A stretch of DNA of 28,542 bases, from contig DAOVQA010000001.1 in the NCBI GenBank assembly GCA_030628925.1, forward strand, positions 1 to 28,542. Reading direction: 5' to 3'. Position numbers and translations under genes: made by a program. Below the pieces are notes generated by a model. The model saw only the letters and a program-made list of their open reading frames with translations, did no database searches and was not told where the DNA came from. How positions within the stretch are numbered: position 1 is the first letter of the stretch; each line of letters begins with the position of its first letter. This DNA comes from Candidatus Bathyarchaeota archaeon (GTDB taxonomy: Archaea; Thermoproteota; Bathyarchaeia; Bathyarchaeales; Bathycorpusculaceae). This document shows, in pieces, positions 9,266 to 12,806 of the stretch.

Positions 9266-10801
9266 ATGGCTGAATCATTGGCTTCAAATTATAAAAAACT
9301 AATGGAAAAAGCAAAAAATCTCTTCATCCTACAGTCAGCAGCTGCAATCGTCCACTGGGACATGGAAACAAAGATGCCGCCTAAGGCAATTAGACTAAGA
9401 AGCCTACAGCTTGCTATGCTCAGTAAAATCGGACACAAAATGAGCACAGATCCTGAAATTGGAAAATTATTGGAAGAAATCATGCGACACCCAGAATACA
9501 ATAGTTTTAATGCTGTACAAAAGAGAAACGCATACCTAATTAAGAAGCACTATGATGAACAAACCAAGCTTCCCGAAGAACTTGTCGTTGAAACCGCAAA
9601 ACAACAAGCCATAACTATTGATATATGGAAGAAAGCGAAAGCCGCCAAAAACTTCTCTATGTTTAAGCCTGAACTTGAAAAGCTTCTCGACTTGAGAAAA
9701 AGAGCAGCAGAAATACTGATGAAAGTGAAAGAGACATCAACACCATACGATGCACTAGTAGACATTTTTGAACCGAAGATGAAAGCGGAATCAATCAGCA
9801 AAGTCTTCGCAGAACTAAGACAAGGCTTGATCTCGCTCATAAGGAAATGTGAGGTGGCTCCAAACCAGCCAGACATATCCATTCTGGAACGTCGAGTTCC
9901 CATTAACGTCCAACGTAGAATTGCGGGATCACTTGCTGAGTTCATCGGATATGACGTAAAGTCAAAGGAAGCTGGAGGTAGGATTGATGAGACCGAACAT
10001 CCTTTCACAACAGGATACTACGATGATGTGCGAATCACAACACACTACTACGAAGATAACTTCGCATCATCCATATTCTCAGTCCTGCACGAGGGAGGTC
10101 ACGCCCTTTATGAACAAAATCTAAAGCAAGAATGGATTTTCCAGCCAGTCGGCAAAGCATGCTCCTCAGGCTTCCATGAATCACAATCACGATCCATAGA
10201 AAACATAATAGGGAGATCACACGAATTCTGGAGCTACTTCCTGCCAAAACTCAAAGAACTCACAGGCAGCGTTCTTTCAGACGTGGACCTAGATAGGTTC
10301 GTTCACGCTGTTAACCAGGTCAAACCATCCAAGATTCGTGTTGAAGCAGACGAGGTCACCTATTGCCTTCACATCATTGTAAGATTCAACCTGGAACAAA
10401 GCTTGTTCGCTGACAAAATAACAGTAGCTGAACTTCCGCAAGTTTGGAACCAAACCTATAAGGAATATTTTGGTGTGGACATCGAAAACGATTCTGAAGG
10501 TGTCATGCAGGATATCCATTGGGCCAGCGGCGCATTCGGTTATTTCCCAAGCTATGCGCTAGGCAACATTTACAGCGGACAAATACTGGCTAACATGGAA
10601 AAAGAACTACCAAACTGGAAATCCCAACTCTCAAACGGCAACTTCCAAAACACAATACAGTGGTTAGCCAAAAATGTGCACAGCTACGGAAACCTCTACG
10701 ATCCACCAGACTTGATTAAAAGAATCACTGGGGAAGAACTAAACGTTAAACCATACTTCAATTATCTAAACAAGAAGTATTCGGAACTCTATGGCTTCTA
10801 A
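9266..10801 (+). CDS. Carboxypeptidase, M32 family (Taq-type)
   Basis: HEXXH (LHEGGH), HESQS, IRVEADE, QDIHW and GYFPSYALG motifs; 511 aa. Confidence 0.96.
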   Translation: MAESLASNYKKLMEKAKNLFILQSAAAIVHWDMETKMPPKAIRLRSLQLAMLSKIGHKMSTDPEIGKLLEEIMRHPEYNSFNAVQKRNAYLIKKHYDEQTKLPEELVVETAKQQAITIDIWKKAKAAKNFSMFKPELEKLLDLRKRAAEILMKVKETSTPYDALVDIFEPKMKAESISKVFAELRQGLISLIRKCEVAPNQPDISILERRVPINVQRRIAGSLAEFIGYDVKSKEAGGRIDETEHPFTTGYYDDVRITTHYYEDNFASSIFSVLHEGGHALYEQNLKQEWIFQPVGKACSSGFHESQSRSIENIIGRSHEFWSYFLPKLKELTGSVLSDVDLDRFVHAVNQVKPSKIRVEADEVTYCLHIIVRFNLEQSLFADKITVAELPQVWNQTYKEYFGVDIENDSEGVMQDIHWASGAFGYFPSYALGNIYSGQILANMEKELPNWKSQLSNGNFQNTIQWLAKNVHSYGNLYDPPDLIKRITGEELNVKPYFNYLNKKYSELYGF

Positions 10802-10989
10802 CCATCACCCTTCTTCTTCAAACTTTTTAAAATATCCCAGATTACAAGAACTATCTTCACAATAATACCAGCAACTACAAGGCACACCCCAGCCCAACCA
10901 ACCAATGCAACATAACAGTTAGCACCATAAAGAAACAAAACAAACCCCATAACTACTGAACACAGGCAAACCAAATCTTTCCACGACAC
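10798..10989 (-). CDS. Small two-TM membrane protein of unknown function
   Basis: Two hydrophobic segments flanking GAN.Y..LVGW and a basic C-terminus. Probable start is GTG 10989 (MSWKDLV...); the ORF track extends it to 11058. Confidence 0.6.
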   Translation of the reverse strand: MSWKDLVCLCSVVMGFVLFLYGANCYVALVGWAGVCLVVAGIIVKIVLVIWDILKSLKKKGDG

Positions 10990-11305
10990 ATTGCACACCC
11001 CAAGAGCTTCAATTTCAAACTTTTGAAGCTCTCGACATATATAGACTTTACTTATCAATCAACAGCTTCCTTCTACTCAACATAAAAGCCCACAATAAAA
11101 CATCTACAACACATCAGGACTGCTACAAAACCTTGCTCTCCGAAAAAAAAGTCCGACACATTCATTTCGAAACATCTGCAGCAAAACATCAAAAGACAGA
11201 ACACCCGACAACAAAACCAGAAAACTACAACAACAGAGGTAGGATAGCAAACATTGCCTACACAAACTAGCTAAAACGCCGTATTACCGCCGCGAACCCG
11301 ACACG

Positions 11306-11340
11306 TTTATATACAACCCTTCTCACACCCTTCTCAGGGT
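11306..11340 (+). promoter_or_regulatory. TATA box (TTTATATA) followed by a tandem 10-bp direct repeat and an overlapping inverted repeat
   Basis: TATA at 11306-11313; ACCCTTCTCA at 11316-11325 and 11327-11336; ACCCT-N4-AGGGT at 11327-11340. Confidence 0.65.
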
Positions 11341-11348
11341 AGAGTTGA

Positions 11349-12806
11349 ATGTCGGAACAGGATATAAAGAAGCCGGAAAACAAGGAGGAATTCACGAAAG
11401 TGTTAATGACCATCGCGAAAAAAGAGTCAGAAGCCCGCAGCTTCCTAAAGGGAAGGCCGACAAAACCTACAATTTCCGGCACAGCCAAATTGATGAACAT
11501 ACACAGAGATACTCTTTATACATGGCTTAAGGAGTTCAACGTCGACTTTAAAAGGATAGCTGACGTTGTATCGACAGCTCAAGCGATAGAAACTGTCGGA
11601 ACCCCTAGAAAGCATATCTATCTAATCGGAGAAGCTTTGATGGGACAGGGAAACGAGGTTGCCCACATAGACCTGTTAATAGGGGATAAAGAAGGCCCTG
11701 TCGGAGAAGCCTTCGCCACCGGCATATCCAACCTTTCCAAAGGACACACACCACTCCTAGCTGTTATACGACCAAACTTACCCCCTAAACCGCACACACT
11801 ACTTGTCCCAAAAGTCACCATAAAGAACACAGAAGACACAAACAAGATCTTTGGCCCAGCACAGGCAGCAGTCGCGAAGGCTGTTGCAGATTCTGTTGAA
11901 GAGGGACTAATTCCAAAAGACAAAGTAGATGATTGGGTCATAATATGCAGCGTTTTCATGCATCCAAAAGCAAAGGACTACCGAAAAATCTACCACTACA
12001 ATTATGGAGCAACCAAGCTAGCTCTGAAAAGAGCGTTAACAAACTATCCACCCTTAGAAAAGATCCTATATGACAAGGACAGAGCTAAACACCCGATAAT
12101 GGGATTCAAAGTGCCACGCCTATGGAGACCACCATACCTACAGATCGCACTCGACATACCAGATTTAAGACGAAACAAGAAAATCATAGCCTCACTTCCA
12201 AAGAGCGACAGAATAATACTTGAGATGGGTACACCCCTCATAAAAAGATATGGAACAAAAGTGATAAGCGAAATGAGAGAAGATGCCAGAGACTTATTCT
12301 TCGTTGCAGACCTAAAAACCCTAGATGTTGGTAAAGTTGAGGTTGACCTAGCCTACGAGGAAACAGCAGACGCAGTTGTTGCCGCCGGATTGGCACCCGT
12401 TGAAACATTAAATGCCTTTATCCACGAAGCAAAAAGACTTGGAATATACGCAGTGGTAGACATGTTAAATATGCAAGATCCAATCAGAAAACTCAGAATG
12501 CTTAAGGAATTCCCTGACATAGTGATTTTACACAGGGGAATAGATCAGGAAACCGGAAGAACCCTTGGCTTAGAACTCATTGAGGAACTACGGCAAGCCT
12601 TTAAGGACAGGAAATTCCTTATCGCCGTTGCAGGTGGAATAGTGCCGGAAACCGCAAAAGAAGCTCTACAAAAAGGAGCAGACATACTCATTGTTGGAAG
12701 GTTTGTGACACAATCTAGGGATGTTGAACGAGCTGTAAGAGAACTCCTTGAACTGACGCCTGAAATGCAAAAAGATATCGACTTATTCAGAGTACATGTA
12801 GAGTAA
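11349..12806 (+). CDS. fae-hps: Bifunctional formaldehyde-activating enzyme / 3-hexulose-6-phosphate synthase with an extra N-terminal HTH domain
   Basis: Fae motifs GEAL.G.GNEVAHIDLLIG and GPAQAAVAKAVADSV; Hps motifs LQIALD, E.GTPLIK, DLKTLD.G, HRGID and AVAGGI. Residues 1-89 form an extension containing TISGTAKLMNIHRDTLYTWLKEF. Confidence 0.93.
   Translation: MSEQDIKKPENKEEFTKVLMTIAKKESEARSFLKGRPTKPTISGTAKLMNIHRDTLYTWLKEFNVDFKRIADVVSTAQAIETVGTPRKHIYLIGEALMGQGNEVAHIDLLIGDKEGPVGEAFATGISNLSKGHTPLLAVIRPNLPPKPHTLLVPKVTIKNTEDTNKIFGPAQAAVAKAVADSVEEGLIPKDKVDDWVIICSVFMHPKAKDYRKIYHYNYGATKLALKRALTNYPPLEKILYDKDRAKHPIMGFKVPRLWRPPYLQIALDIPDLRRNKKIIASLPKSDRIILEMGTPLIKRYGTKVISEMREDARDLFFVADLKTLDVGKVEVDLAYEETADAVVAAGLAPVETLNAFIHEAKRLGIYAVVDMLNMQDPIRKLRMLKEFPDIVILHRGIDQETGRTLGLELIEELRQAFKDRKFLIAVAGGIVPETAKEALQKGADILIVGRFVTQSRDVERAVRELLELTPEMQKDIDLFRVHVE

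Follow-up and report, generated by a model that had tools for sequence, protein, structure and literature searches.

A Fae-Hps enzyme of Bathyarchaeia with a predicted DNA-binding domain and a conserved hexamer array at its own promoter

The DNA considered in this study (the window) comprises 28,542 nucleotides (nt) of a Candidatus Bathyarchaeota archaeon, positions 1 to 28,542 of contig DAOVQA010000001.1 in assembly GCA_030628925.1, and the subject is one gene within it, fae-hps, along with the DNA around its start. The gene encodes a protein of three parts: an N-terminal extension of 90 residues, then a Fae domain (residues 93-251), then an Hps domain (residues 262-465). An earlier note, drawn from the letters of the window, proposed that the extension contains a helix-turn-helix (HTH) and that the protein is both an enzyme and a regulator. 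I will describe the evidence that the extra domain is real, that an array of CCGACA hexamers surrounds the start of the gene, and that the two vary together. The parts of the gene are given here by position in the window and strand.

11349..12806, + strand: fae-hps open reading frame (ORF), encoding 485 amino acids (aa)
11349..11558, + strand: N-terminal domain, aa 1-70, predicted to bind DNA; helix 12-34, HTH helices 42-48 and 53-62, start of helix 67-84
11559..11618, + strand: variable linker, aa 71-90; ratio of nonsynonymous to synonymous substitution rates (dN/dS) 0.51; length varies; AlphaFold2 confidence (pLDDT, predicted local distance difference test) below 50 at residues 81-87
11625..12101, + strand: Fae domain, aa 93-251; PF08714, E 2e-71; PDB 1y5y, E 4.5e-43; H106 and D108 invariant
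12132..12743, + strand: Hps (3-hexulose-6-phosphate synthase) domain, aa 262-465; PF00215, E 4e-31; matches to PDB 9lj9, 3f4w and 3ajx

Both catalytic domains score above the gathering scores of their Pfam families: Fae with 239.5 bits against a cut-off of 27 (PF08714, positions 1-159 of 159 covered) and Hps with 108.9 bits against 27 (PF00215, the OMPdecase/HUMPS family). The two invariant residues of the AHxD segment of Fae (H106 and D108, in 73 sequences) are presumably equivalent to active-site His22 and Asp24 of Methylorubrum Fae. Those of Hps are E292 (the metal-binding Glu), the suprafamily motif D321-x-K323-x-x-D326, and H395. Since the catalytic motifs are invariant and the genome has a separate phi gene (C28:6248), the fusion protein appears still to be an enzyme. 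It would convert hexulose-6-phosphate to ribulose-5-phosphate and formaldehyde, the formaldehyde being trapped on tetrahydromethanopterin (H4MPT).

The extension is translated and conserved. It is not a chance open frame, as judged by the lengths of its homologues, its fixed start, its invariant residues, and its low dN/dS. A search of 5.8 billion proteins found more than 100 homologues of 76-98% identity, all of them 480-489 aa in length. At each of 80 loci read for start position from GTDB species genomes, the distance from the start codon to an HRDTLY motif downstream is exactly 51 or 47 codons, and nearly all of these starts are ATG. The ATG in the window is preceded by a purine-rich stretch like a ribosome-binding site (11336..11344, + strand), and a GAGG-type purine stretch is seen 5-12 nt 5' of the conserved ATG in upstream sequences read among the 73 related loci that share this ATG. 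When dN/dS is calculated by region over 688 sequence pairs, the values are 0.20 for codons 1-38, 0.049 for codons 39-70, 0.51 for the linker (71-90), 0.037 for Fae, and 0.060 for Hps, the constraint on codons 39-70 thus resembling that on the catalytic domains. Eleven residues are invariant in 75 sequences (T41, A46, H52, R53, D54, T55, W59, E62, F63, V65, and F67), and these are concentrated in the second HTH helix, H52-R53-D54-T55..W59.

Might the extension be absent from the mature enzyme, with translation beginning near residue 85-92? Some members of the cluster are annotated at 401-412 aa, and the methanogen enzyme has no such extension. Against this, no in-frame ATG, GTG or TTG occurs between M49 and M98 (the latter already within the Fae domain), the upstream ATG and its ribosome site are conserved, codons 39-70 have a dN/dS of 0.05, and a TATA box lies 43 nt before the upstream ATG. 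I regard a late start as extremely improbable. An internal start giving a short isoform was rejected on the same lack of start codons and on the strong purifying selection acting upstream. The earlier note had claimed that no Met occurs just before Fae and that the fusion looks genuine. The first claim is accurate, and the second is confirmed by the conserved start, the lengths of homologues and purifying selection; a start at residue 1 is favored by the conserved ATG, the GAGG-type site upstream of it and, again, purifying selection. A Fae-Hps protein with an extra N-terminal domain is therefore a confirmed observation.

The NCBI records of relatives annotated at 401-412 aa cut off the conserved domain. 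Those in the cluster of P0091 (P0129, P0133, P0135, and P0138, annotated at 401-408 aa with a start in the linker) are probably mis-called starts. A split HTH gene was also considered. The short ORFs suggesting it, in L087, L092, and L101, result from multiple frame switches spread over the full gene, a pattern usual for errors in long-read assembly. The three are metagenome-assembled genomes, two of them from one isolate series (MFD...), their promoter hexamers are intact, and the frame switches are probably errors of sequencing or assembly, not signs of pseudogenes. Nor is an 89-aa frame in G025 a separate HTH gene, the frame being cut by a contig end. In two cold-seep runs, one of them probably DNA, the stretch is present only as contigs; the RNA contig covers only 11594-11799.

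The segment in which the earlier note recognized an HTH pattern, TISGTAKLMNIHRDTLYTWLKEF, is exact in both peptide and coordinates (aa 41-63), and the predicted structure agrees with it. An AlphaFold2 model of the full-length protein, built with an alignment of 73 sequences, has helices at 12-34, 42-48, 53-62, and 67-84, with pLDDT of 84-89 over blocks 11-70 and below 50 in the linker, placing an HTH at 42-62. Folded alone, the domain gives the same helices at lower confidence. The general features of an HTH are found: two helices joined by a tight turn and packed on a further helix, with conservation peaking in the second (recognition) helix. Residues 36-70 are basic (isoelectric point 10.2). 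The only Pfam matches in residues 1-92 are to HTH families, on residues 35-65 and all below threshold: HTH_29 (23.1 bits, cut-off 28.1), HTH_28 (22.0 bits, cut-off 25), and HTH_23 (18.4 bits, cut-off 24.6). The lists returned by fold searches consist almost entirely of DNA-binding HTH proteins (TetR, AraC, sigma region 4, Fis/NtrC, homeodomain, transposase, and small terminase), and a profile search of PDB sequences matched the phage protein 2ao9 with an E of 0.008. A feature search of the ESM Atlas gave no usable match. Assignment to a family by structure was tried and abandoned, as neither Foldseek (against PDB and the AlphaFold database (AFDB) clusters) nor a wide VIA search gave a significant match. 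I will call the extension a predicted HTH-like four-helix domain, belonging to no curated family.

A domain of this shape need not bind nucleic acid. It might instead be a module for protein-protein contact or oligomerization, serving, say, to attach Fae-Hps to a partner enzyme, and both the sub-threshold Pfam matches and the weak fold matches leave room for this, as does the long first helix (12-34), which could mediate association. Conservation, however, is strongest in the turn and the second helix, as is typical of positions that contact bases. Together with the fusions in other lineages described below, this makes a purely protein-binding role quite improbable.

The DNA around the start of the gene contains seven copies of CCGACA or its complement TGTCGG between 11153 and 11704 (552 nt), placed about a TATA box as follows, where BRE is the recognition element for the transcription factor TFB.

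11153..11158, + strand: distal hexamer 2, CCGACA; part of the genome's only cluster
11205..11210, + strand: distal hexamer 1, CCGACA; an upstream copy at about -105 in 34/73 loci
11298..11303, + strand: proximal hexamer, CCGACA, at the BRE position, 2 nt before the TATA box; 73/73 loci (about -53)
11306..11313, + strand: TATA box TTTATATA, 43 nt before the ATG; in relatives an invariant TTA[T/A]ATA core 42-46 nt before the ATG
11350..11355, - strand: inverted hexamer TGTCGG overlapping the start codon (ATGTCGG); 70/73 loci (+2)
11457..11462, + strand: intragenic CCGACA, codons Pro37-Thr38; 98 sites at +90..+119 in 73 loci
11594..11599, - strand: intragenic TGTCGG in the linker; weakly conserved, a site at +230..+249 in 18/73 loci
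11699..11704, - strand: intragenic TGTCGG in Fae, codons V118-G119; a site near +350 in 10/73 loci

The last two copies may be due to chance. A further conserved position, +210..+229, is occupied in 50 of the 73 loci, and in most relatives' loci the upstream copy is separated from the proximal one by 52-55 nt or by 93-108 nt. The array is unique in the genome: the 1.214-Mb draft contains 273 hexamers (0.22 per kb), from which about 0.1 would be expected in the span where seven are observed, and nowhere else do three or more fall within 300 nt. It is also conserved. The upstream regions of the 73 loci cannot otherwise be aligned, yet all carry CCGACA, three nucleotides, and then TTA[T/A]ATA. 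CCGACA is the top 6-mer found de novo, with at least two copies in -200..+10 at 72 of the 73 loci. In 24 of 41 relatives the genome has a single occurrence of the combined pattern CCGACANNYTTAWATA (CCGACA-N3-TTAWATA), invariably a short way upstream of fae-hps, and the reversed pattern, examined as a control, gave two matches in all. More distant families have CCGACA or CGACA before TTTATA, at a slightly different spacing and with extra copies of TGTCGG upstream.

Two broader roles for the hexamer were considered and rejected. As a generic BRE it would have to recur, and it stands next to TTTATATA once in 1.21 Mb and once in each relative's genome. As the mark of a wider regulon it does no better: only three other adjacent pairs within 120 nt are found in the genome, about the level of chance, single hexamers next to A/T-rich boxes in the genome are followed by no telling genes, and no hexamer sites precede phi or the genome's second Fae gene (a DHDPS-Fae fusion, described below).

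Where the hexamer lies in coding sequence, it appears to be maintained as DNA. Codon 2 is TCG at 72 of 73 loci, as compared to 14% of Ser codons elsewhere in these genes, and codon 3 begins with G at 70 of 73, and in this way ATGTCGG is kept. Of the 185 Pro-Thr pairs within codons 1-92, 146 are written CCG-ACA; beyond codon 92 the count is 4 of 29, and codon usage would predict about 10%. Such preferences point to selection on the nucleotide sequence itself and favor the view that the hexamer is a site to be bound.

Since the start-codon UGUCGG and the downstream CCGACA are both transcribed and complementary, they might act instead in mRNA, pairing so as to hide the start codon and control translation independently of the HTH. 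Pairing in register does have a probability above 0.5 in 19 of 67 loci, but the probability in the window is 0.001, the median is 0.085, and the loci are inconsistent with one another. Moreover, the transcript would not include the best conserved copy (73/73) or the distal copies, all of which precede the TATA box. I give an mRNA element very little credence.

The link between hexamers and HTH emerges from those genes in which one or the other has changed. In G266, a genome of the same family, an in-frame deletion has removed the HTH, the first 12 residues being kept, and both promoter sites are mutated, the promoter site to CCGGCA and the start to ATGTCAG. Hexamer sites are missing from two paralogues, G384:C58, in which the HTH has been lost, and G224:C94, in which it is degenerate (H52 to Q, R53 to L). 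There is no upstream hexamer in ten Fae-Hps genes of other orders and classes that lack an N-terminal DNA-binding domain, nor in two that have a different one. In these comparisons of sequence the array co-varies with the HTH, and every event is in the same direction.

It is conceivable that the HTH binds DNA and the hexamers are read by some other factor, a dedicated transcription factor or a special TFB, while the HTH tethers the enzyme to the nucleoid non-specifically or regulates unrelated targets. The proximal hexamer does lie at the BRE position, the domain is basic, and the connection between HTH and hexamers comes from comparison. On the other side, the genes in which the hexamers have decayed are precisely those with a deleted HTH or an altered recognition helix; the motif is found once per genome, only at fae-hps; hexamers are selected within the very DNA that encodes the HTH; and a generic BRE would recur at other promoters, as the pairing with TTTATATA does not. 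I consider a separate reader of the hexamers unlikely.

The distribution of the extension is narrow. Among 41 near relatives, matches to the full length (1-485) occur in families f1, f2, f3, f6, f7, f8, and f9 of the same order. When 401 genomes spread evenly over the phylum were sampled, 37 matched residues 1-92, in frames of about 480-610 aa; 36 of these belong to the same order, and the exception, G217, belongs to a second order of the same class. The enzyme was found in 310 of 401 genomes of the order, and among 150 matches listed there, every complete frame is at least 477 aa. Fae-Hps proteins of other orders and classes have frames of about 403-470 aa and lack this domain. The extension is thus a conserved feature of one entire order of Bathyarchaeia, a single genome of a second order also having it, and the fusion looks, from this distribution, to be derived and lineage-specific. 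Residues 1-92 found 31 matches in 1.84 billion representative proteins, mostly pieces of the same fusion cut by contig ends, with one free-standing relative of 108 aa on a 719-bp contig. Five further proteins (P0156, P0165, P0169, P0171, and P0172; 314-589 aa) carry 4-7 tandem HTH units resembling residues 25-80 of the extension (e.g., ...ITxxTLYxYLRxxNVP...).

Other lineages of Bathyarchaeia have placed different modules at the same position. Fae-Hps of G336 (L122/L134, G336:C22) has an N-terminal extension of 61 residues resembling a ribbon-helix-helix (RHH_1, 19.2 bits against a cut-off of 20.5) and, beside its TATA box, a perfect 18-nt palindrome. Extensions of this type were matched in 32 of 201 sampled genomes of Bathyarchaeia, and in 30 of them, all from other orders, the frame is long enough for Fae-Hps, mostly 434-488 aa (in family f73, for example, 22 of 43 genomes, and in f19, 4 of 5). 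Repeats of the type TGTGACAC..GTGTCACA are present at the promoter in three of the ribbon-helix-helix loci that were read, as well as in G336; L135, L136, and L139 are further loci of this form. By sequence this is apparently a parallel and independent fusion of enzyme and regulator. In G068 (L121/L140, G068:C4) and G447 (L141, G447:C202), both of family f13, Fae-Hps bears yet another HTH of about 68 aa, whose sole match above a Pfam cut-off is a weak one to an extracytoplasmic function (ECF) sigma family (PF07638, 22.9 against 21.1), the other matches, to sigma-70 region 4-like families and to HTH_28 and HTH_29, being sub-threshold. Three unrelated DNA-binding modules at one position on one enzyme argue for selection to couple the enzyme to DNA. 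They also tell against the protein-docking module considered above, since the common property of the replacements is DNA binding and a palindrome stands at the promoter of the ribbon-helix-helix genes.

One polypeptide, then, contains a domain like those that bind DNA and an intact enzyme, and comparison reveals a conserved candidate operator in the promoter of its gene: the features of an enzyme-fused autoregulator. I think it probable that Fae-Hps is such an autoregulating enzyme, its HTH recognizing CCGACA in its own promoter, and the interpretation offered in the earlier note is to that extent supported by the sequence comparisons. The HTH, joined to the intact Fae-Hps by a flexible linker of about 20 residues, would recognize the hexamer. 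Given the usual geometry of archaeal promoters, with the TATA box centered about 40 nt before the ATG, the transcript would start about 13 nt before the ATG. The proximal hexamer would then sit at the BRE and the inverted start-codon copy about 15-20 nt after the transcript start, with further copies upstream and inside the first 230 nt or so of coding sequence. Bound protein could block TFB/TBP or RNA polymerase and so repress its own gene, though activation is an alternative sign. Solved structures of Fae in PDB have five chains each and those of Hps two or four; a Fae pentamer and an Hps dimer would make the fusion multimeric, presenting several HTHs. Several HTHs per oligomer would suit an array of single hexamers 52-107 nt apart and not one palindrome, and this matches the idea in the earlier note that oligomers present the HTH in multiple. 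The ligands of the enzyme would be natural candidates for effectors, as in RbkR (see below), with binding tuned by the occupancy of the enzyme domains by substrate or product; the effector may be formaldehyde, H4MPT, or hexulose-6-phosphate.

Several observations weigh against this interpretation. Transcription factors are not usually built on a pentamer/dimer enzyme core. The domain falls short of membership in HTH_29, HTH_28, and HTH_23, its Pfam scores lying below their gathering thresholds, and the fold matches are insignificant by themselves (best VIA Z 5.4; Foldseek E at least 1.1 for PDB and at least 0.5 for AFDB clusters). CCGACA resembles a canonical archaeal BRE (CGAAA-like), and taken by itself the proximal copy might be an atypical site for TFB. 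The spacings between sites in the window (52, 93, 52, 107, 137, and 105 nt) correspond only loosely to whole helical turns. The genome yielded no second target gene, hence there is no regulon against which the motif might be cross-checked. Finally, just two or three events of loss were observed, all of them near one another in phylogeny and not independent of it.

A more elaborate scheme is possible, which I put forward tentatively and think rather doubtful. Pentameric rings of Fae tied together by Hps dimers might carry 5-10 tethered HTHs and wrap about 350-550 bp, both the gene's own promoter and the DNA encoding the HTH. Part of the protein sequence would then owe its existence to the operator, with the codon for Ser2 and the Pro-Thr pairs retained because they spell CCGACA/TGTCGG, and binding of formaldehyde, H4MPT, or hexulose-phosphate would alter the assembly and free the DNA. 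Along with the ribbon-helix-helix and second-HTH fusions, the protein would represent a recurrent one-component sensor of one-carbon (C1) and pentose metabolism in Bathyarchaeia, and it would be the first transcription factor linked to formaldehyde or H4MPT to be proposed in archaea.

The gene is flanked by a Taq-type M32 carboxypeptidase, a small divergent ORF, ribosomal protein S6e, and an ORF that by its sequence I take to be aIF2-gamma, an order common to most relatives. S6e lies directly 3' of fae-hps in the window and in the closest relatives, while most other loci (among L033-L106) have about 1.3 kb of extra DNA between the two. The divergent ORF is as follows.

10798-11058, - strand: small divergent ORF, 86 aa, with hydrophobic stretches and without a Pfam match

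It is kept in position and sequence at 62 of 80 related loci. Both distal copies of CCGACA fall between it and fae-hps, and the two genes may share a control region. One related locus, L067 (DATHCJ010000047.1, a 153-kb contig), is titled Candidatus Limnocylindrales bacterium; it has the block of M32 peptidase, small ORF, and HTH-Fae-Hps at a contig end, with a fusion protein 71% identical to that of the window, and is probably mis-binned or chimeric.

The second Fae of the genome (L002:511-1893; contig C77:1810-3194, truncated where the contig ends) follows, in the same chain, a complete domain of the DHDPS/DapA family (PF00701, E 4.5e-80, then Fae, E 1.5e-50). In many relatives a second Fae match, of about 50% identity, occurs in frames of about 495-505 aa. 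I know of no function described for a DHDPS-Fae fusion. Another Fae-like fusion is chain B of PDB 8ub7, a 290-aa protein deposited as 'Avd', residues 128-286 of which match the Fae domain (E 1.5e-42).

Bathyarchaeia are among the most abundant uncultured archaea of sediments, and to my knowledge almost nothing is known of how their carbon metabolism is regulated. Fae-Hps is placed where pentose synthesis meets the C1 pathway of H4MPT, and it handles toxic formaldehyde. A predicted DNA-binding domain on the enzyme itself and a defined candidate operator of six bases constitute a testable regulatory circuit in an uncultured lineage, and the fusion of three different modules to one enzyme speaks for strong selection on a link between its state and transcription. 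Copies of a candidate operator selected within the sequence encoding a DNA-binding domain would be an unusual case of overlapping codes. On the practical side, the annotation is corrected of some public records that start the protein about 80 residues late, hiding the domain.

The nearest relation among known enzymes is the canonical Fae-Hps. The characterized methanogen protein has no N-terminal extension. Canonical methanogen Fae-Hps and the Fae-Hps of Thermoproteota that are free of DNA-binding domains have both catalytic domains of the window protein, arranged alike, and the catalytic motifs checked are invariant; they start at the Fae domain, with frames of 403-440 aa and no CCGACA upstream, whereas the window protein adds 90 residues. 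Ribbon-helix-helix-Fae-Hps, for which I located no description in the literature, is alike in having an N-terminal module (55-60 aa) and an operator-like element beside its own TATA box and differs in its CopG-type fold and in an inverted repeat, TGTGACAC..GTGTCACA, in place of hexamers.

The closest parallel in design is RbkR, an archaeal riboflavin kinase with an N-terminal winged HTH that regulates its own gene, its binding to DNA responding to substrate and product (PMC5397151). Both proteins unite in one chain an archaeal enzyme and an N-terminal DNA-binding domain (here predicted), and both have operators in their own promoters (here candidates); the enzyme domain of RbkR doubles as the sensor of ligand (PMC5397151). 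They differ in that RbkR has a winged HTH, palindromic operators, and a regulon, as opposed to the four-helix HTH, array of single hexamers, and sole target found here (its own gene); the enzymes and pathways are unrelated; and RbkR has been validated experimentally, HTH-Fae-Hps being known from comparison. With Fae and OMPdecase/Hps the only domains that Pfam recognizes, and no kinase domain, it is an analogue of RbkR and not a member of its family.

HxlR of Bacillus subtilis controls the hps-phi operon. Like FrmR of E. coli and Salmonella, it responds to formaldehyde and controls genes that handle it (PMC7835342, PMC5016687). The two are separate small proteins of other families, not fused to an enzyme, and sense formaldehyde through cysteine chemistry. 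No homology to either was seen in the analysis of HTH-Fae-Hps. BirA, NadR, and PutA are bacterial proteins, each both an enzyme and a repressor of its own pathway; they differ from HTH-Fae-Hps in their bacterial origin, their unrelated domains, and their classical dimeric operators. A search of full-text literature for Fae-Hps with Bathyarchaeota, helix-turn-helix, and related terms found no description of the HTH-Fae-Hps architecture. Fusions of enzyme and regulator are already known as a kind.

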